Below, in pieces: positions 6,807 through 16,434 of a stretch of 64,000 nucleotides of DNA; position 1 is the first letter of the stretch, and every line of letters starts with the position of its first letter. Source of the stretch: an uncultured Bacilli bacterium. GTDB taxonomy: Bacteria > Bacillota_I > Bacilli_A > RF39 > UBA660. The position numbers and the translations under genes were made by a program. The stretch is from NCBI GenBank assembly GCA_934154785.1, contig CAKPGL010000001.1:266814-330813 (forward strand). The letters run 5' to 3'. A model generated the notes under the pieces. It did no database searches, had not been told where the DNA came from, and was given only the letters and a program-made list of their open reading frames with translations.

Positions 6807-6835
6807 TTGACTAATGAATTTTTATGATATACAAT
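6807..6835 (+). promoter_or_regulatory. sigma-A type promoter for nrdD
   Basis: TTGACT-17-TACAAT with a TG two nt upstream (extended -10-like). The ORF-track ATG at 6824 lies inside it. Confidence 0.45.
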
Positions 6836-6859
6836 TTAGGTGTAAAAAGTAGGAGAGAG

Positions 6860-9181
6860 ATGTATATGAACAAGACTGAAGAACTATTAGAAAATTTAAC
6901 TGTTGTTAAAAGAGACGGTAAAAAAGTTTCTTTTAATGGTACAAAAATTGCTGTAGCAATCAAAAAAGGCTTTGACAGCATTCCTAAAGTATATGATGAC
7001 GATGAAGAAGAAAAATCAGTATATACTGAAAAAGATATTCAAAAAGTTTATCAATCTGTAATTAATCGCATTGAAAAAGATTATAAAGATAGTGAAAAAA
7101 TTAAGATTGAAGAAATTCAAGATATTATTGAAGAGCAATTAAAAAAATTAAAATATGACGATGTATATGAATCTTTTTCAGAATATCGTGAGAGAAGAGC
7201 TCAATCTCGTGAAATGTTTATGGATGATAAAAAAAGACATAAATTTTTAAAAACCCTAGAAGGTTTAGGATTAAAATCCGCTAGTGAAGATGACACTAAA
7301 AGAGAAAATGCTAATGTAGATGGTGATACCGCAATGGGAACCATGCTACAATATGGTAGTACAGTTTCTAAAGAATTTGCTAAATCATACTTGATGAAGA
7401 AAAAATATTCTGATGCTCATGATGATGGTGATATTCATATTCATGATATGGACTTCTTACCAATGGGTACTACAACTTGTATGCAAATTGATTTGGAAAA
7501 ATTATTTAAAGGTGGTTTTTCTACGGGTCATGGACATTTAAGAGAACCAAATGATATTATGTCTTATACTGCTTTAGCAGCGATAGCTGTTCAGTCAGAT
7601 CAAAATGATCAACATGGTGGACAAAGTATTCCAGCTTTTGATTATTATATGGCACCTGGAGTTTTAAAAACATTTAAGAAGCAATTTAAACAACTAATTG
7701 CGGATTATCTAGATTATTCTGAATTTGGTAATTTTATTTGTATGAATACCATTGTTAAAGAAATAGATAAATTAGAAAGTATTGATGTTGATTTATCAAT
7801 CTTTGATAGAGTTTGTAAAGATTCAGATGAAGTAAAAAGATTATTTAAGTTAAGTTATGAAAAAGCTTTACAAAAAACAGACCGTATTACTTATCAAGCG
7901 ATGGAAGCATTTGTTCATAATTTAAATACAATGCATTCTAGAGCTGGAGCTCAAGTACCATTTTCTTCTATTAACTTTGGTACTGATACTTCTAGTGAAG
8001 GTAGAATGGTTATGAAAAACTATTTACTTGCTGTAGATGCGGGCCTTGGTCATAATGAAACACCAATATTCCCAATATCTATTTTTAAAATAAAAGAAGG
8101 GGTAAACTATAATCCAGAAGACCCTAACTATGATTTATTTAAACTTTCTTGTAAAGTATCCGCTAAAAGATTATTCCCTAATTTCTCATTCATGGATTCA
8201 CCATTTAATAAACAATATTATAAAGGTGATTACAAAACAGAAGTATGTTACATGGGATGTCGTACTAGAGTAATGGGCAATGTTGTAGATCCTGATAAAG
8301 CAGTTACTCCAGGACGTGGTAATCTATCATTTACATCTATTAACTTACCAAGACTTGGTATTAAACATGGTATAGTTCTTGGAAATAATGAAAAAACAGA
8401 TTTAAAAGGTTTCTATGCAGAACTTGATGATTTGATGGATTTAGTTAAAGATCAATTACTAGAAAGATTTGAAATTCAATGTAATAAAAGAGTTTATAAC
8501 TTCCCATTCTTATTAGGACAAGGTGTTTGGATAGACTCTGAAAAATTAAAACCAACTGATAGATTAAGAAAAGTATTAAAACATGGTACTTTATCAATTG
8601 GATTTATTGGTTTAGCAGAGTGCTTAAAAGCATTAACTGGTAAACATCATGGTGAAGACGAAAAATCTGCTAAATTAGGACTTGAAATAATTAAACATAT
8701 GCGTCAAAGATGTGATGAATATGCAGAGAAATATAATTTGAATTTTACGTTATTAGCAACACCTGCTGAAGGATTATCTGGAAGATTTGTTAATATAGAT
8801 AAAGCTGTATATGGAAAGATAAAAGGTGTTACAGATAGACCTTATTATACTAACTCATTCCATATCCCAGTTTACTTCCATATTTCTATAGCAAATAAAA
8901 TAAAATTAGAGGCACCTTATCATGAACTTACAAATGCTGGACATATTTCTTATATTGAATTAGATGGTGATCCTAGTAAGAATGTTGAAGCATTTGAAAA
9001 AATTGTTCGTATGATGAAAGAAAATAATATGGGATATGCCGCTATTAACCATCCAGTTGATAGAGACCCTGTATGTGGTTACGTAGGTGTAATTGGTGAT
9101 GTTTGTCCAGGTTGTGGCAGACGTGCTAATGAAGCTGTTAGTGTTGAAAAGTTACATAGTTTAAGTTGCGATTGTAAATAA
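6860..9181 (+). CDS. nrdD: anaerobic ribonucleoside-triphosphate reductase (class III RNR), catalytic body ending in the Zn-ribbon and lacking the glycyl-radical segment
   Basis: RBS AGGAGAGAG then ATG 6860/6866. C-terminus INHPVDRDPVCGYVGVIGDVCPGCG...SVEK aligns to the E. coli NrdD Zn-ribbon INHPVDRCHECGFTGE...CPKCG...SVTR. The ORF stops (TAA 9179-9181) exactly where RVCGYLG...FNAGK would follow. Confidence 0.9.
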   Translation: MYMNKTEELLENLTVVKRDGKKVSFNGTKIAVAIKKGFDSIPKVYDDDEEEKSVYTEKDIQKVYQSVINRIEKDYKDSEKIKIEEIQDIIEEQLKKLKYDDVYESFSEYRERRAQSREMFMDDKKRHKFLKTLEGLGLKSASEDDTKRENANVDGDTAMGTMLQYGSTVSKEFAKSYLMKKKYSDAHDDGDIHIHDMDFLPMGTTTCMQIDLEKLFKGGFSTGHGHLREPNDIMSYTALAAIAVQSDQNDQHGGQSIPAFDYYMAPGVLKTFKKQFKQLIADYLDYSEFGNFICMNTIVKEIDKLESIDVDLSIFDRVCKDSDEVKRLFKLSYEKALQKTDRITYQAMEAFVHNLNTMHSRAGAQVPFSSINFGTDTSSEGRMVMKNYLLAVDAGLGHNETPIFPISIFKIKEGVNYNPEDPNYDLFKLSCKVSAKRLFPNFSFMDSPFNKQYYKGDYKTEVCYMGCRTRVMGNVVDPDKAVTPGRGNLSFTSINLPRLGIKHGIVLGNNEKTDLKGFYAELDDLMDLVKDQLLERFEIQCNKRVYNFPFLLGQGVWIDSEKLKPTDRLRKVLKHGTLSIGFIGLAECLKALTGKHHGEDEKSAKLGLEIIKHMRQRCDEYAEKYNLNFTLLATPAEGLSGRFVNIDKAVYGKIKGVTDRPYYTNSFHIPVYFHISIANKIKLEAPYHELTNAGHISYIELDGDPSKNVEAFEKIVRMMKENNMGYAAINHPVDRDPVCGYVGVIGDVCPGCGRRANEAVSVEKLHSLSCDCK

Positions 9182-9199: not shown

Positions 9200-9361
9200 A
9201 TGAAAGATGAAAAAAGTGTAAAAGAAACTTCAAAAAAAATGGTTGGTGAAGGTGTAGGTTTTGAAAGAATCAGAAGAATTACTGGTTATTTAGTAGGAAC
9301 TGTTGATAGATTTAACAATGCCAAACGTGCTGAAGTTGAAGATCGTGTAAAACATTCATAA
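9200..9361 (+). CDS. stand-alone NrdD glycyl-radical domain peptide (53 aa)
   Basis: Own RBS AGGAG (9187-9191) then ATG 9200, in a different frame from nrdD. Peptide ...GFERIRRITGYLVGTVDRFNNAKRAEVEDRVKHS matches the NrdD C-terminal radical motif R-x-C/T-G-Y-L...F-N-x-G/A-K-x-x-E-x-x-x-R-V-K-H. Confidence 0.6.
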   Translation: MKDEKSVKETSKKMVGEGVGFERIRRITGYLVGTVDRFNNAKRAEVEDRVKHS

Positions 9362-9362
9362 T

Positions 9363-9926
9363 ATGAAAATACGTTTAGCAACACCTAATATTCAAAAAGA
9401 TAGTGTTGTTGATGGTGAAGGTATCAGGGCAGTTATTTGGACGCAAGGTTGTTCTCACAACTGCCCTGGTTGTCATAATCCTGAAACACATGATTTTAAT
9501 TCAGGATATTTAGTAGATATTTGTGATGTAAAAAAACAAATTGAAGAATTGGTTGCTTCTCATAATGGAATAACATTATCTGGTGGAGACCCTTTAATGC
9601 AGGTAGATTCTTGTTTGGAATTAGCTAAATATGCTGAAAGTTTAGGGTTAAATGTTTGGTGTTATACAGGTTTTACTTTTGAAGAATTATTACTAGCGTC
9701 AAAATCAAAGCCTATTATAAAAGAATTCTTGAATACTATTGATGTATTAGTAGATGGAAGGTTTAAAATAGAAGAAAAAACCTTTGATGCTATATTTAGA
9801 GGTTCAAGAAATCAAAGAGTAATCGATACAAAAAAAAGTTTAATTAAAAATAAAGTTGTAGAAATACCTAAATATAAGGTAAATAAACCTATAAAAAAGG
9901 TACCAGAACAACATCTTTATATATAG
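9363..9926 (+). CDS. nrdG: anaerobic RNR activating protein (radical SAM)
   Basis: GCSHNCPGCHNPETH CxxxCxxC radical-SAM motif. 187 aa. ATG immediately after the stop of the small ORF. Confidence 0.85.
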   Translation: MKIRLATPNIQKDSVVDGEGIRAVIWTQGCSHNCPGCHNPETHDFNSGYLVDICDVKKQIEELVASHNGITLSGGDPLMQVDSCLELAKYAESLGLNVWCYTGFTFEELLLASKSKPIIKEFLNTIDVLVDGRFKIEEKTFDAIFRGSRNQRVIDTKKSLIKNKVVEIPKYKVNKPIKKVPEQHLYI

Positions 9927-9933
9927 TAAAAAT

Positions 9934-9967
9934 AGTTTAACAGATATAAAATGTTAAACTGTTTTTA
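9934..9967 (+). terminator. rho-independent terminator after nrdG
   Basis: AGTTTAACA-loop-GTTAAACT followed by GTTTTT. Confidence 0.55.
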
Positions 9968-10047
9968 TATCATACGATATTTATCATTGTAATGAAATGT
10001 AAAATTATGCTAAAATATTAATATATAGTATGGAGAGGTAGAAGTAC

Positions 10048-13000
10048 ATGAAAAAGATAAATCGAGTATTTGTTTTGGTATTTATAATTGCGTTAGCAAT
10101 AACATTAATTTCCGTTAAAATGATAGTTTTAACAAATTCAACTAAGAATATAGAAATAGTATTAAATAATGAATATTATTCTTATTTATCAAAGGAAGCA
10201 AAAGAATACGTTGAAGAAGTGTATGAAGAAACAGGTAAAGTAATTCTTACTGAAAAAAATAAAAAAGTAAACAAACCTTATTTAAATCCTGATTATATAG
10301 AGTACTTATCTTTAACTGCTGAACAAAAAAAGAAGGAGGGGGTTATTCCATCTCCAACAATCATTGATTATTACAGTAAAGATAACGCTATTAATAATAG
10401 CTTACCAAGTAGTTATGATCTAAGAAATGTAGATGGTAAAAATTATGTTACACCAGTAAGAGATCAAGGTAAGCTAGGATTATGTTGGACTTTTGCTTCA
10501 GCTGGTGCAGCGGAGTCTTATTTATTAAAAACAAGTAATACGACATATTCTAATAGTTCTCAGTTAATATCAGAAAGACAAATCGATTACGCTACTGCAA
10601 TTGATGGCATCAAAGATTATCGGAGTGAATATGTGTCATTTATTGGGAGAAAACTGGGTGAAGGTGGAAATATTTATATTTCTACTGTTGCTATGGCAAA
10701 TGGAATATCATTAATAGATTATAAAAAATTTAAGTCATATAATGATTCAGATTTACAAAAAATGGAATTAAATGATATTTTAAGTTATAAAAATTCTTTA
10801 TATGAAGTTAATGAGACAATTAATATGCCTATTTTAAATCTTCGTGAATCTACTGATGAATTGTCACAAGAAGACGTTGAAGTAAGAAATAGTTTTATAA
10901 ATGAAATAAAAGAAAATATAACAAAATATGGTGCTGCCTATGTTAGCACATATGTAACTTCAAGTTGTGCGTATGATGATACTAATTTAAATAATATGGT
11001 TGTTGATGTATATAGCTGTAGTATTGCCGGCGGTGGACATGCGATGCAGATAATTGGTTGGAACGATAATATAGAATATAATTATTGTAATGATAATAAC
11101 GTGCATAGCAGTGATTTAACAAATTGTAGTAATATAATAAATGGTAAAGGAGTATGGATTTTAAAAAATTCCTGGGGTGATAGTGATCAATATCCATATT
11201 TAACCTATGATTCTCTTAAAAGTAGCATTTCTTTTATTAAAAATATGACTACTAACTTGGATAAATCTTGGAATAACAATTATATTTTGGGAACTGATGC
11301 ACATAGTTCAAAAAAAGAATATCAATTATCTACAACAAGAATCAAAGATAATGAAAAAATAAAAAAAATTAAATTTATTTCTATGACTGGTACTTCGACT
11401 TATAACGTTAAAATTTTAGATATAAATGGCATATATACGGAAAAGAATGTATATGCAGAAACACCGGGTTTAATAACATTAGAATTTGATTCAGATGTTG
11501 TTGTAAATAAAGATTCAAACATAATAATTAGTACATCAAATAATAATGATGGCGAATTTCTTGACAAAGTTAGTTTATTTACAAGCAATGTTGATAATAC
11601 TCCCTATATATCTTTAGAGATTTATGAAAATATAAATCTTGCATATTCACCCAATAAAGTATTGTATTTAGAAACAAAAAATGTTCCTTCGGGTTCTAAT
11701 GTAACATTTAAATTATATAATAGTGAAAATAAAGAGGTAAATTCATATATATCTTATACAAATAACGTAGTGGCAGAAAATAACATTAATTTAAGACTTA
11801 GTGCTAGTACTGAATTACCTGCAGGTGATTATCGTTTAGATGCAATATATGACTCTAATGTTATTGCTTCTGTCAATGTAGTGTCACAAAGAATGCAAGG
11901 TTCAGGAACAGAAAGTGATCCTTATATAATCAAAAGTTCTGAAGATTTAAACCAAATAAGATACGATTTAGATGCTTATTATATCTTAGATAATGATATT
12001 GATCTAACAGAAGATACTAGCGAAGGTGGTAAATTATCACTTAAATCAGAAATCTGCCCACAAGGCTTCGGGTGGGAATCAATAAATGACTTTAATGGGA
12101 CACTAGATGGAAAAGGCCATGCAATTAAAGGATTGCATCAAAATAACTTTATATCTTGTAGTATAAATCAAGAAAAATGGAATGCATGGAATAATGCAGG
12201 CAATGGTTTATTTGGTTCTGCGTATGGCAATGTTGTTATTAAAAATCTAATATTAGAAGATTTTGATGTAAATTGTCAAGGAAGTTATTGTAGTGCATTA
12301 TTAACCGAATATAAAGCTGATAATGGGGATCAAAATAATACTAATGAATATAATGCTATATTTAAAAACATTGCTTTAAAGAATAGCAAAGTAAGTGGCA
12401 CATACAATAATAGAAATCCGATTAGTAGTTTGCAAAATTCATACGGTGGTGGTTTATTTGGGTATTTTGAATCCGTTTATGGTAATATCTCAATCTCTAA
12501 TATATATTTAGATTTTAAACTTGATAACAAAGATTTAAAAAATACAGCATATTTAATTAGCACCATTCAGGGAAATAATGTTGATATTAATAATATTTCA
12601 ATAAAAGGAAATATTAATGGCAAATATGCAGATGGAGACAACGACGCAGTATTAATTTATCGAATAGTTGATCAAATACTTATAAATGGCACATTTTTTA
12701 CAAAAAATATTTTATCGACAGTAACAGGTAAGAACGTATCGGGACTCTTATATAAGCATGGTACTGATGGTACTATAGCCAAAGTCAATTTATTAAACAT
12801 AAAAGACACACCTCTTTGCCAATATAAGTGTTCTAATGTAACAGGTATAAATATTTATGATAAAGATACAGAGTTAACAGAGTTAATAAGAAGAGAAAAC
12901 TATGAAACTTGGGAAAATTTTGATGAAAATTGGGTTATGAAGACAATCGATGGAATACCTAGAATACCAGTCCTAAAGTTTGTTGATTTTGAATATACAA

Positions 13001-15039
13001 AATTTGATGATATTGTGATAAATCAAGAGTTAAATAAAAAATATAATATTTATGATTACTTATATCCTAAGAATGATTCTGCTAAAAGAATAACTTTTAA
13101 ATCAAATGATGAAAGCATCGTTAAGATAAATGAAGACGGGACTATTATTCCACAATCTACAGGTAGAACAACTATTCATGTGGAAAGTTATTATGACGGA
13201 TATATAAATGATGTTCCTATTACGATTAATTATGTACCGCATTATACAGTTAAATTTGACGCCAACGGTGGAGTAGGAACAATGGAATCTATTGAAGTTG
13301 ATACTACCAATAATTATGCGTTACCAACAAATGTTTTTACGAAAGAAAATTATGAGTTTAAGGAATGGAATACAAATGCTGACGGAACAGGGATCTCCTA
13401 TAATAATCTAGCTTTGTTACCTGCAATGGAGGATAAAACCGTAGTTACCTTGTATGTACAATGGATAGGTGAAGAAAAAATAGTTACGTTTGATGCCAAT
13501 GGTGGAACAGTAAATCCTGATAAAAAAATTGTTCGTTATGGGGATACCTATGGAGATTTACCAATACCTATCAAACCTGGTAACGGCTTTAATGGCTGGA
13601 GAGCAGGTTCCGTTTCAGTAAATTCTAATTCAAGCTTATATGGTTACAACTTAATAGCAAGTTGGAGAGAGAATGCTTATACAATCATATACGATGCTAA
13701 TGGTGGAACAGTAAATACAGATGATGAAAATTTAAAATATTTAAGGCTTATGTCTAATTCTACCGCAACTACTATTGCCTTTAATGGAAAAGAAAAAGAA
13801 CTTGCTAAGAATTTTTATAAAAAATCAGGTTATGCGTTTAAAGAATGGAATACTAGTGCTGATGGAACAGGTACGTCTTACAAAGATACTGATAAGATAA
13901 ATTTTGATAATGTGGAAAATTCAACATTTAGATTATATGCACAGTGGGAATTAGAAAGTTATTATGTAACTTTTAATCCTAATGGTGGAATAGGAACTAT
14001 GGATAACCAATCTTTTGTTCCAAATGTGGAACAAAATTTAGTATTTAATAAATTCACAAAGGATGGTTATATATTTAAAAGTTGGAATACGAATGCTGAT
14101 GGAACCGGTGCATCTTATAAAGATGGCGAGACTATAAAAATTACAAATAATTTAACTTTATATGCGATTTGGAGTCCAATAGAATATGGTGTAACTTATG
14201 AAGCGAATAACGGTACAGGTAATGAATTAATACAAAATACACACTATGGTGATGATATTTTACTAAATTACAATACGTTTACAAAAATAGGTTATACATT
14301 TAAGGAATGGAATACAAATGCTGACGGAACAGGTATTTCATATAAAGAGGGACAATCTATAAATATTAAAGAAAATATAGTATTATACGCTATCTGGAGT
14401 CCGATAAAATATAGTATCACTTATAAAGCAAACAATGGTACAAGTGATTTTGTTAGTACTCAGGAGGCATACTATGGTGAGAGTATTATTTTATATAATA
14501 ATGTATTCTCTAAGGATGGTTATATGTTTGCAGAATGGAATACAAATATTGACGGAACAGGTACTTCATATAAAGAAGGACAATATATGAATATTACAGA
14601 AAATTTAGTATTATATGCTGTATGGAAAGAAACATATTCTTATGTAATTGATCTATACGATTATGATGATAATGAAAATTTTATAGAAATTCCTATTAAC
14701 ATTACACAAGATATTTTAAGAAGTCATATTAAATTAAATAGTAATTATAGAATAGAAATAATGACATCTTATAGTATGTTACATACTGGTAGTAAAGTAA
14801 GAATATATAACAATAACCGTTTAATAAAGGAATATACTAATGTTGTAAGGGGGGATGTAAATGGAGATGGTAAAATATCTTCAGCAGATTATGTTAAAAT
14901 AAGAAAATATATTATGGGTACAGGAATTATAAATGATAAATACTTGTTTAAGTCTGCTGATGTTAATAATGATAAAAAAATATCTTCGGCAGATTATGTT
15001 AAAATAAGAAAATATATTATGAATGGAGAAGGTTTATGA
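10048..15039 (+). CDS. very large secreted/surface modular protein: papain-like (C1) cysteine peptidase, beta-helix-like region, Ig-like (Big_2) domain, about 7 Listeria-Bacteroides (Flg_new) repeats and 2 C-terminal dockerin-like Ca-binding repeats
   Basis: N-terminal TM/signal. C1 catalytic signatures QGKLGLCWTFAS (Cys), GGGHAMQIIGWND (His), LKNSWG (Asn). GSGTESDPYIIKSSEDLNQIRYDL...DIDL beta-helix start. ITFKSNDESIVKINEDGTI Big_2-like. Repeated [FY]KEWNTNADGTG[IT]SY units. DVNGDGKISSADYVKIRKYIMG and DVNNDKKISSADYVKIRKYIM dockerin-type repeats. Confidence 0.8.
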   Translation: MKKINRVFVLVFIIALAITLISVKMIVLTNSTKNIEIVLNNEYYSYLSKEAKEYVEEVYEETGKVILTEKNKKVNKPYLNPDYIEYLSLTAEQKKKEGVIPSPTIIDYYSKDNAINNSLPSSYDLRNVDGKNYVTPVRDQGKLGLCWTFASAGAAESYLLKTSNTTYSNSSQLISERQIDYATAIDGIKDYRSEYVSFIGRKLGEGGNIYISTVAMANGISLIDYKKFKSYNDSDLQKMELNDILSYKNSLYEVNETINMPILNLRESTDELSQEDVEVRNSFINEIKENITKYGAAYVSTYVTSSCAYDDTNLNNMVVDVYSCSIAGGGHAMQIIGWNDNIEYNYCNDNNVHSSDLTNCSNIINGKGVWILKNSWGDSDQYPYLTYDSLKSSISFIKNMTTNLDKSWNNNYILGTDAHSSKKEYQLSTTRIKDNEKIKKIKFISMTGTSTYNVKILDINGIYTEKNVYAETPGLITLEFDSDVVVNKDSNIIISTSNNNDGEFLDKVSLFTSNVDNTPYISLEIYENINLAYSPNKVLYLETKNVPSGSNVTFKLYNSENKEVNSYISYTNNVVAENNINLRLSASTELPAGDYRLDAIYDSNVIASVNVVSQRMQGSGTESDPYIIKSSEDLNQIRYDLDAYYILDNDIDLTEDTSEGGKLSLKSEICPQGFGWESINDFNGTLDGKGHAIKGLHQNNFISCSINQEKWNAWNNAGNGLFGSAYGNVVIKNLILEDFDVNCQGSYCSALLTEYKADNGDQNNTNEYNAIFKNIALKNSKVSGTYNNRNPISSLQNSYGGGLFGYFESVYGNISISNIYLDFKLDNKDLKNTAYLISTIQGNNVDINNISIKGNINGKYADGDNDAVLIYRIVDQILINGTFFTKNILSTVTGKNVSGLLYKHGTDGTIAKVNLLNIKDTPLCQYKCSNVTGINIYDKDTELTELIRRENYETWENFDENWVMKTIDGIPRIPVLKFVDFEYTKFDDIVINQELNKKYNIYDYLYPKNDSAKRITFKSNDESIVKINEDGTIIPQSTGRTTIHVESYYDGYINDVPITINYVPHYTVKFDANGGVGTMESIEVDTTNNYALPTNVFTKENYEFKEWNTNADGTGISYNNLALLPAMEDKTVVTLYVQWIGEEKIVTFDANGGTVNPDKKIVRYGDTYGDLPIPIKPGNGFNGWRAGSVSVNSNSSLYGYNLIASWRENAYTIIYDANGGTVNTDDENLKYLRLMSNSTATTIAFNGKEKELAKNFYKKSGYAFKEWNTSADGTGTSYKDTDKINFDNVENSTFRLYAQWELESYYVTFNPNGGIGTMDNQSFVPNVEQNLVFNKFTKDGYIFKSWNTNADGTGASYKDGETIKITNNLTLYAIWSPIEYGVTYEANNGTGNELIQNTHYGDDILLNYNTFTKIGYTFKEWNTNADGTGISYKEGQSINIKENIVLYAIWSPIKYSITYKANNGTSDFVSTQEAYYGESIILYNNVFSKDGYMFAEWNTNIDGTGTSYKEGQYMNITENLVLYAVWKETYSYVIDLYDYDDNENFIEIPINITQDILRSHIKLNSNYRIEIMTSYSMLHTGSKVRIYNNNRLIKEYTNVVRGDVNGDGKISSADYVKIRKYIMGTGIINDKYLFKSADVNNDKKISSADYVKIRKYIMNGEGL

Positions 15040-16409
15040 AGAAGTTGAAATATTTAATAGTTACGATATTATTAACATCTTGCTTTTTGCCAATGAGTAC
15101 TTTAGCAGTAGGTAGTATTGATGTTTCTACAACAAACTTAAACATTACCAAAGGTAAAACTGCAACATTTACAGTAACCGCAAATAATGCTGCAGGTAGA
15201 ATAGACATATCATCATCCAACCCCTCTGTTGCAAGCGTTTCAAATTCCAGTGTATTTTTGGATATGCAAAGCAGCACTATTACTGTTACAGGTAATAGTG
15301 CTGGTACTACAATAATTAAAGTACAAGTAACTGATGCAACTACTTACGATGATGAAGATTTATCGTTAACAACGTATACTATTACAGTAAATGTAACTGA
15401 TCCAACAAGTAGCAATAACAATAATAACGATAATAATAGTAATAATAACAATAATACAAGTAACCTATCTAAGAACAACAAATTAAAAGAGTTATCTGTA
15501 GAAGGATTTGAACTCGTAAAAACTGGTAATAATAATTATACATTACTAGTAAGTAATGATATAACTAGTGTAAATATTAAAGCTATAGCAGAAGATAATA
15601 AGGCTAAAATTTCTGGCACTGGTTCTCATGAGTTAAAAATTGGTGAAAATAGTATTGACATTGTTGTAACATCAGAATCAGGTTTAAAAAACAAAATAAA
15701 TATTAAGGTAACTAGAAAAGATGGTTATGATTTGAATGATTTAGAAAAATTACTTAATGATTCTAATGTAAATGATATTAATGTTAATATTAATCTTGGA
15801 GATACAATATCTTCTAATTTATTAGAATTAATTAAAAATAGTAAAAAAGTTGTTAGATTAAACTACTTTGATGATAATAAAAAATTAGTATATAGTTGGA
15901 TTATTGATGGTTCTAAAATTGAATCTGTAAAAGAATTTTCTACTGATGTATCTTTGGTATCAGAAAACAAGCAACAAATAGATAAATTGTCTAATTATGC
16001 TAATGGAATATGCGTTAATATCAAACATTCTGGAGATCTCCCAGTGGGTACAAAAATTAAATTATATGTTGGTGATAACTATTTAGATGGGAATTTACTA
16101 AATGTTTATTATTATAATAGTATAAATAAAAAATTAGATTTAATTAAAGATAACTTATTAGTAGAAACTGGTTATATTGAATTTTCTGTAGAACATTCTT
16201 CTGAATATTTTATAACAATGTCTAATATAGGTGAAGCTACAACTAAAAATATTACATCTACTAAATATAATATATTTATTATTGTATCGGTAATTGAATT
16301 TATCATTATTGTATGTATGATAACCTTCTATATCTTAAAAGTTAAGTGTACTAAGTTTAACAAGAATAAAAGTAATATTACGGAAAAACCTATTTATATT
16401 GAAGAATAA
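15036..16409 (+). CDS. membrane-anchored surface protein with Big_2-like and cadherin-like beta-sandwich domains and a C-terminal TM anchor
   Basis: ATGA start/stop overlap with the upstream gene (translational coupling). Signal peptide. Big_2-like NLNITKGKTATFTVTANN...SNPSVASVS. Asn-rich linker. Cadherin-like LKELSVEGFELVKTGNNNYTLLVSNDITSVNIKAIA. C-terminal hydrophobic IFIIVSVIEFIIIVCMITFYIL plus basic tail. Confidence 0.55.
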   Translation: MKKLKYLIVTILLTSCFLPMSTLAVGSIDVSTTNLNITKGKTATFTVTANNAAGRIDISSSNPSVASVSNSSVFLDMQSSTITVTGNSAGTTIIKVQVTDATTYDDEDLSLTTYTITVNVTDPTSSNNNNNDNNSNNNNNTSNLSKNNKLKELSVEGFELVKTGNNNYTLLVSNDITSVNIKAIAEDNKAKISGTGSHELKIGENSIDIVVTSESGLKNKINIKVTRKDGYDLNDLEKLLNDSNVNDINVNINLGDTISSNLLELIKNSKKVVRLNYFDDNKKLVYSWIIDGSKIESVKEFSTDVSLVSENKQQIDKLSNYANGICVNIKHSGDLPVGTKIKLYVGDNYLDGNLLNVYYYNSINKKLDLIKDNLLVETGYIEFSVEHSSEYFITMSNIGEATTKNITSTKYNIFIIVSVIEFIIIVCMITFYILKVKCTKFNKNKSNITEKPIYIEE

Positions 16410-16434
16410 AAAGCAACTTACCGTTGCTTTTTAT
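16408..16434 (+). terminator. rho-independent terminator
   Basis: AAAGCAAC-ttacc-GTTGCTTT followed by TT. Confidence 0.55.

Follow-up and report, generated by a model that had tools for sequence, protein, structure and literature searches.

Two overlapping genes, A and B, in a 64,000-nucleotide stretch of contig CAKPGL010000001.1 from an uncultured Bacilli bacterium (hereafter the window, meaning the whole stretch analysed) encode a predicted papain-family (C1) peptidase that ends in a type-I dockerin and a smaller protein with an N-terminal immunoglobulin (Ig)-like domain and a C-terminal transmembrane (TM) helix. Across related loci, the gene for this Ig-like domain (the N-domain) almost always follows a dockerin gene, both segments vary together, and true cohesins occupy the slot of the N-domain in homologous anchors. 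We consider it reasonably probable that A and B form an enzyme-plus-anchor pair for surface display, in which the dockerin of A docks to the N-domain of B. An earlier note, made from the sequence alone, had proposed that B tethers the protease to the cell surface through residues ~230-400. The tethering idea is supported by comparative genomics (adjacency and co-variation), while the candidate receptor moves from that region to the N-domain.

In the proposed mechanism, B would be exported and stay in the membrane through its C-terminal helix, with the N-domain pointing outwards as the outermost part. Beneath it, an Asn-rich linker, the cadherin-like domain and a juxtamembrane domain (the C-domain, residues 229-400) would form the stalk. 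A would also be exported, and its Ca-dependent type-I dockerin would be captured non-covalently by the N-domain of B. Docking would retain A, a 180-kDa C1 protease with Flg_new repeats, at the surface of the producer. The dockerin and the N-domain would act as a matched specificity cassette, of type I in this locus, that is swapped as a unit between lineages and enzyme heads. The benefit for this small-genome gut member of the Bacilli would probably be the harvest of peptides from host or dietary protein.

Dockerin genes and the anchors that follow them

The dockerin of A matched Dockerin_1 (PF00404) at residues 1602-1657 (E 3.6e-11, 43.5 bits; cut-off 22.9). When the isolated segment was searched, the match improved to E 1.1e-13 and 51.6 bits and covered model positions 2-56 of 57, including both repeats; solved type-I dockerins such as CelS were matched as well. 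Both repeats (DVNGDGKISSAD... and DVNNDKKISSAD...) carry Asp or Asn at the Ca-ligand positions 1, 3, 5 and 12. In B, Big_2 (PF02368) was found on residues 24-100 at the threshold of the family (E 5e-5, 23.6 bits; cut-off 22.8), and a cadherin-like Pfam match covered residues 164-228 (E 1.7e-6). The AlphaFold2 (AF2) model of B reached a mean predicted local distance difference test (pLDDT) score of 83.7, with values >90 in all three domains. The B family comprised >700 proteins at E<=1e-3.

The survey covered 164 related loci from genomes and metagenomes; of the loci fetched after the first contexts, 78 came from distinct species genomes and 79 from metagenomes. Among the open reading frames (ORFs) that encode a B-type N-domain and have upstream DNA, 88 out of 89 lay directly after a large ORF with a dockerin at its extreme C-terminus. 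The gap between the two ORFs ranged from about -4 to +20 nt, and 80 distinct pairs were represented. The hidden Markov model used for these counts was a mixed one that included cohesin-type N-domains (L050, L056 and L059), so that they hold for any B-type N-domain; the N-domains were later sorted by Pfam and by separate alignments. All non-redundant upstream C-termini tested (76 out of 76) were Pfam Dockerin_1. Locus L083 of an Anaerocolumna metagenome-assembled genome (MAG; positions 9410-10810) has an upstream gene without a terminal dockerin, and its N-domain match is displaced to residues 76-179.

Adjacency to a dockerin gene went with the N-domain. Specifically, 18 of 19 anchors that have the N-domain and lack the C-domain followed a dockerin gene (e.g. 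L051, L053, L066 and L085), among them proteins consisting of the N-domain only (L063, L072 and L076), a class present in Lachnospiraceae and Clostridia. None of the 11 proteins with a C-domain and without an N-domain was placed in this way, seven of them being clearly intact genes in the genome set. The enzymatic part varied from locus to locus. A B homologue with 51% identity followed a C1-Flg_new-dockerin gene and another one with 60% identity followed a Peptidase_S8-LRR-dockerin gene, both with the 4-bp overlap present in the window. Of 42 upstream proteins, 19 matched Peptidase_C1, 17 Peptidase_S8 and three Glucosaminidase; LRR_5 (BspA-type) was matched by 18, in connection with the S8 group. 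The dockerin and the anchor are the constant elements across loci and the head is interchangeable.

Homologous anchors showed which kind of domain can occupy the N-terminal position. In an Erysipelotrichaceae homologue of B (L050), which follows a dockerin gene and is built of an N-domain, three cadherin-like domains, a C-domain and a TM helix, the N-domain is a Pfam Cohesin (37.9 bits, cut-off 24.1, full model covered). Locus L023 contains further dockerin genes together with proteins of 311 and 364 aa that combine Cohesin, a cadherin-like domain and a TM helix. These cohesin-type N-domains matched solved cohesins, which served as a positive control. By Pfam, residues 25-121 of B gave no Cohesin (PF00963) match at E<=1, and this domain of ~97 aa lacks the cohesin-type fold of ~140 residues. 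Similarly, Pfam never found Cohesin among the N-domains of types I-III (types are described below), while Big_2 was found in 24 out of 76 N-domains. The profile of types I-III matched the Big_2-like domains of SbsC (E 6e-7) and no cohesin. Aligned directly to the cohesin-type set with hhalign, the N-domain type of the window reached a probability of 9.6%; by way of type IV, the probabilities were 91% (types I-III to type IV) and 90% (type IV to cohesin-type). As type IV is linked to both sides at ~90%, descent from a cohesin is conceivable, and the Ig-like N-domain may be either a much-reduced cohesin descendant or an unrelated replacement. By family match and fold, the N-domain of the window does not classify as a cohesin, yet it sits in the cohesin's place.

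As a separate observation, the region L023:1973-16739 holds three dockerin genes and, besides the two Cohesin-bearing anchors, one B-type anchor whose N-domain is of a rare type; the dockerin beside that B-type anchor is of a type unlike the other two.

Co-variation of dockerin and N-domain

The dockerins were classified into at least four sequence types, plus rarer types with various signatures. Type I, that of the window, reads ...SSADYVKIRK..., type II ...IDIIDYIRIMK..., type III ...NYLDYVNVYN... (with an insert) and type IV ...NSADLLKIRQ.... The Ca-ligand positions were constant over all types; what distinguishes the types are positions 9-11, 13-14 and 17-18, in the first repeat as in the second. 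Recognition of cohesins by type-I dockerins classically involves contacts from positions 10, 11, 17 and 18.

Pairwise distances were compared over 39 species pairs and identities were tabulated over 26 closely related loci. Distances between dockerins correlated with those between N-domains (r=0.85), and distances between cadherin-like domains with those between C-domains (r=0.84), while cross-correlations between these two blocks were ~0.35. The 124 residues of A that immediately precede the dockerin correlated with it at r=0.40. A partial Mantel test gave r=0.83 (p=2e-4) for dockerin and N-domain given the C-domain, and r=0.08 (p=0.10) for dockerin and C-domain given the N-domain. N-domains were 70% identical within dockerin types and 33% across them, as against 64% and 63% for the cadherin-like domain and 51% and 49% for the C-domain. 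The MAG RGIG5819 carries two matched pairs: in one, dockerin and N-domain are both of type II, and in the other the dockerin is type IV-like and the N-domain of type IV. Otherwise, these anchors share just 39% identity.

Both the dockerin type and the N-domain type were independent of the type of head, N-domain identity being 42% within head types and 40% between them. This bears on the idea that the N-domain is an inhibitor, immunity protein or chaperone of the upstream hydrolase, as the Ig-like chagasin inhibitors are for C1 proteases. Co-expression with a protease would fit such a function, and one cohesin-type N-domain gave a sub-threshold match to Inhibitor_I42 (chagasin; E 1.2e-5). However, the N-domain of the window has no I42 match, one anchor family serves C1, S8 and glucosaminidase heads, and the N-domain tracks the dockerin rather than the catalytic domain. 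We consider an inhibitor-like role very improbable, and the chagasin-like version was rejected because the N-domain type is independent of the head type.

A more serious alternative is that A and B do not bind each other. The dockerin would then bind another target (a cohesin encoded elsewhere, the cell wall or a glycan) or be merely a Ca-stabilised C-terminal module, B would be an independent co-expressed adhesin, and the co-variation would stem from DNA neighbours that are recombined together. The coding segments for dockerin and N-domain lie ~100 nt apart, so recombination as one cassette could yield co-variation without binding. Moreover, the N-domain is Big_2-like and not a cohesin, and among related genomes some giant adhesins carry a dockerin with no recognisable receptor encoded after it. 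Against this explanation, the stretch of A bordering the dockerin is only weakly correlated with it, which places recombination breakpoints at domain boundaries on both sides. The four types stay matched over many species and both head types, they differ at positions through which classical dockerins touch cohesin, and no further dockerin ORF besides A was found in the 64-kb window. The boundary breakpoints, the true cohesins in the same slot of homologous anchors and the two matched pairs in one MAG argue against linkage as the sole cause of the co-variation, and we regard the absence of binding as fairly unlikely.

Some further points weigh against docking of A to B and have to be set beside the evidence for it. 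Besides the short distance between the two segments and the lack of a Cohesin match in the N-domain of B, there is one exception to the adjacency (L083), and the Mantel permutations remove shared phylogeny incompletely. A literature search, of incomplete coverage, returned nothing relevant on an Ig-like or Big_2 dockerin receptor and, to our knowledge, none is known. Finally, an uncleaved N-terminal anchor of A may make a second tether less obviously needed.

The receptor originally suggested, a cohesin-like domain in residues ~230-400 of B, hardly deserves credence any longer. In its favour, the region shows good conservation, and no other unannotated extracellular part of B is as large. However, it has neither the sequence nor the fold of a cohesin, no Pfam family matched residues 229-400, its distances did not follow those of the dockerin once the N-domain was taken into account, and C-domain proteins without an N-domain never followed a dockerin gene. 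The check that the earlier note had named, a search of this region for a cohesin fold, found none and pointed, if anything, to a remote ZU5/GAIN-like fold; a cohesin-like receptor in residues 229-400 is largely refuted.

Residues 229-400 possibly constitute a new domain with a remote ZU5/FIIND/GAIN-like fold, the fold class of ankyrin, UNC5B, CARD8, NLRP1 and adhesion G protein-coupled receptors (GPCRs). At the sequence level no relation of the C-domain to ZU5, FIIND or GAIN was found, and Foldseek gave nothing significant. Autoproteolysis at H-x-[S/T] is known from this fold class; GAIN domains are cut close to the membrane, in the turn that leads into their last strand. In B, the motif E-H387-S388-S389-E-Y-F (16191-16211) is located in the turn between the last two strands, 20 residues before the TM helix. 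Unlike in the ZU5/FIIND/GAIN proteins, the His is present in just 47% of the C-domain family, while Ser389 is present in 83%; deep-branching members retain H[C/A/F]S, including 'HFS'. Autoproteolytic cleavage at H-x-S is put forward as a hypothesis, a putative side lead suggested by the motif.

Two proteins of 156 aa that consist of the C-domain only, L060:9971-10453 (Clostridium methylpentosum DSM 5476) and L057:9288-9770, stop right after '...EHC', at the point where the conserved Ser and the last strand would follow, and the missing strand was found in no downstream frame. They could have been truncated naturally at the putative cleavage point, or the gene could have decayed.

Comparison with cohesin-dockerin systems

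In cellulosomes, type-I cohesin-dockerin pairs operate together with surface-anchoring scaffoldins, such as SdbA and OlpB of C. thermocellum or ScaE of R. flavefaciens, and non-cellulosomal cohesin-dockerin pairs are already known. The A-B pair resembles the cellulosomal ones in that an enzyme carries a C-terminal two-repeat Ca-binding dockerin, the partner is non-catalytic and apparently surface-anchored, and specificity classes are set by helix positions 10-11 and 17-18. In contrast to them, the candidate receptor is a Big_2-like Ig domain of ~97 aa instead of a cohesin, each anchor has one receptor and there is no polyvalent scaffoldin, anchoring relies on a C-terminal TM helix and not on SLH domains or on a sortase signal, proteases or peptidoglycan hydrolases are carried in place of plant-cell-wall carbohydrate-active enzymes (CAZymes), and enzyme and anchor form one coupled gene pair. 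With one receptor domain in B, one dockerin ORF in 64 kb, and proteases and glucosaminidases as heads, the locus does not qualify as a cellulosome.

Dockerins on putative peptidases and leucine-rich-repeat (LRR) proteins, in groups that correlate with protein classes, have been described in R. flavefaciens FD-1 (PMC2930009), and the heads found here are alike in this respect. There, the dockerins belong to a large cohesin-based cellulosome, whereas here, in gut Bacilli with small genomes, they are accompanied by an Ig-like membrane anchor from the neighbouring gene. The cohesin anchors of L023 and L050 have the same architecture and the same place after a dockerin gene, and the L050 anchor also has the cadherin-like domain and the C-domain found in B. 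In these anchors, the N-domain position is taken by a bona fide Pfam Cohesin, while the N-domain of the window is joined to such cohesins only transitively, via type IV. The Big_2 domains of the S-layer protein SbsC (PDB 4uid and 4uj7) are a further known counterpart; these are structural S-layer units and we know of no dockerin binding by them.

In the literature, within an incomplete coverage, we found no system described that unites a minimal, translationally coupled pair of genes for enzyme and anchor, a monovalent receptor protein held by a TM helix, an Ig-like domain where a cohesin would be expected, co-diversification into a number of types and a wide spread in gut Bacilli. Because of that coverage, this result is weak evidence of novelty.

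Many genomes carry dockerins with few or no recognisable cohesins, and the partner of such orphan dockerins has long been unclear. This family of loci supplies a candidate that can be cloned, an Ig-like domain of ~100 residues encoded just downstream, which co-varies with the dockerin in at least four types. If the binding is true, known dockerin receptors would extend past the cohesin fold, and several small orthogonal Ca-dependent protein-protein connectors would become available for synthetic biology. It would also explain how abundant uncultured small-genome gut Bacilli of humans and animals retain large proteases, BspA-like LRR proteins and giant adhesins, with a bearing on host-protein degradation and colonisation. 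A possible bacterial GAIN/ZU5-like juxtamembrane domain would be of evolutionary interest of its own.

A more far-reaching proposal can be composed from these elements. Gut Bacilli would have replaced the cohesin by a small Ig-like (Big_2-like) dockerin receptor. Dockerin and receptor would have diversified together into at least four mutually orthogonal types and would move as a cassette between proteases and cell-wall hydrolases, possibly keeping surface enzymes with their producer among co-living relatives; the ZU5/GAIN-like domain of the anchor would self-cleave at H-x-S, so that the assembly could be held non-covalently and shed. Taken with all its parts, this proposal appears distinctly unlikely.

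Giant proteins of 1000-5500 aa, with 7 to >30 cadherin-like repeats and a C-terminal dockerin, were observed in L064, L071, L073, L075, L079, L080, L082 and L084. Two such genes precede a cadherin-like protein of 528-600 aa in both L071 and L080, and the first 180-220 residues of that protein gave no match to any Pfam family. Small cadherin-like proteins also occur near A homologues in L010, L018 and L025, and Pfam found no receptor domain in the N-terminal 180-220 residues of the small cadherin-like proteins of these five loci. The giant-adhesin loci L071 and L080 may represent additional dockerin-anchor modules that use other kinds of receptor.

Other features of the two proteins and the locus

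The features of both genes are listed in the table.

Table. Positions of the features of genes A and B within the window.
Feature	Position	Strand	Remarks
Promoter-like site (TTGTAA, 18 nt, TG-TAAAAT)	9987..10016	+	In the 121-nt gap after nrdG; consensus match only
Ribosome-binding site of A, GGAGAGG	10032-10038	+	
Gene A	10048..15039	+	1663 aa; predicted exported multidomain cysteine protease with terminal dockerin
N-terminal export signal of A (putative)	10048..10131	+	MKKINR, then ~20 hydrophobic residues
Papain-family (C1) catalytic domain	10402..11202	+	A residues ~119-385; Pfam Peptidase_C1 and cathepsin K alignment
Predicted catalytic Cys146	10483-10485	+	Motif QGKLGLCWTF; aligned to cathepsin K
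Predicted catalytic His331	11038-11040	+	Motif GGGHAMQIIGW; between Cys and Asn; no HMMER alignment shown for His
Predicted catalytic Asn374	11167-11169	+	Motif NSWG; aligned to cathepsin K
Six Flg_new (Listeria-Bacteroides) repeats	13243..14631	+	Pfam E 9e-61, six stretches; DNA repeat families D1-D3
Type-I dockerin (sequence type I)	14854..15024	+	Two 22-residue Ca-binding repeats, 14854-14919 and 14959-15024
Gene B	15036..16409	+	457 aa; predicted type-I membrane anchor; start overlaps stop of A
Signal peptide of B, residues 1-24 (predicted)	15036..15107	+	Ends ...STLA before VG; model helix 2-17
N-terminal Ig-like (Big_2-like) domain, residues 25-121	15108..15398	+	Proposed dockerin receptor in the cohesin slot
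Asn-rich low-complexity linker, residues 122-144	15399..15467	+	pLDDT <50
Cadherin-like beta-sandwich, residues 145-228	15468..15719	+	Pfam PF12733 and structure model
Juxtamembrane C-domain, residues 229-400	15720..16235	+	Uncharacterised alpha/beta domain
Transmembrane helix, residues 411-434 (predicted)	16266..16337	+	Sequence; model helix 413-441
Intrinsic terminator (predicted)	16406..16434	+	12-bp stem and T-tract, directly 3' of the B stop codon

Most of the gene and domain calls of the earlier note agreed with our analysis. The coordinates and lengths of both ORFs were exactly as stated there, the ATGA overlap is present at 15036-15039 and Pfam, the AF2 model and the sequence confirmed the order of signal peptide, Big_2, cadherin-like domain, uncharacterised region and C-terminal TM helix in B. 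The papain-family domain with its Cys, His and Asn motifs was recovered by Pfam and, for Cys and Asn, by the cathepsin K alignment, and the C-terminal dockerin with two EF-hand-type repeats by Dockerin_1. Three details needed correction. The two dockerin repeats, given as one sequence occurring twice, in fact differ (DVNGDGKISSADYVKIRKYIMG and DVNNDKKISSADYVKIRKYIMN). The near-identical DNA repeat that encodes them does exist (D4), with a length of 63 nt (14854-14916 and 14959-15021, 87% identical) instead of 45 nt. Likewise, the Flg_new repeats are present but number six and not about seven.

A is a papain-family (C1) peptidase by its Peptidase_C1 match (E 6e-12 in two stretches, 46.5 bits; cut-off 20.7) and by the order of Cys, His and Asn, from which activity is predicted. 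The beta-helix-like segment and the Ig-like domain that the earlier note saw in A stay putative: between residues 1004 and 1060, Pfam returned weak matches only, to HL_N-beta (E 0.008) and Big_2 (E 0.11). The homologues of A start alike, with a segment rich in Lys and Arg followed by ~20 hydrophobic residues. As no clear A-x-A cleavage site was found at the N-terminus of A or of these homologues, this segment may be either a cleaved signal peptide or a signal-anchor. The enzyme would perhaps be held twice, by an N-terminal membrane anchor and by C-terminal docking. In the homologues of B, the signal peptide reads ...VFAA before G or S, and the Lys-rich tail after the TM helix of B is presumably cytoplasmic.

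A and B look like a private, translationally coupled two-gene operon, given the ATGA overlap (ATG of B at 15036-38, TGA of A at 15037-39), the promoter-like site and ribosome-binding site before A and the terminator after B. The start codon of B is preceded by GGAG, 7 nt upstream of the ATG. The predicted terminator RNA folds at -16.8 kcal/mol (z = -6.5), and promoter-like matches were not commoner in the window, which is AT-rich (G+C ~27%), than in shuffled sequence. A perfect 10-bp palindrome (TTTTGTTCCA AATG TGGAACAAAA) at 14013-14036, within the Flg_new region of A, has a terminator-like score on both strands and may be due to chance in AT-rich repeat DNA.

The neighbourhood of the operon is ordinary chromosomal, with nrdD and nrdG upstream and yunB, DUF4015 and hrcA-grpE-dnaK-dnaJ downstream. 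Identical copies of the locus were found in long contigs of human gut metagenomes, one Hadza sample among them, and the named relatives are 'Bacilli bacterium' MAGs and Candidatus Aphodocola (Bacilli incertae sedis). Upstream, nrdD is apparently split into a body of 785 aa (6824-9181) and, after a gap of 18 nt, an ORF of 53 aa (9200-9361) with the glycyl-radical motif (...RIRRITGYLVG...), a split that was called alike in three independent contigs.

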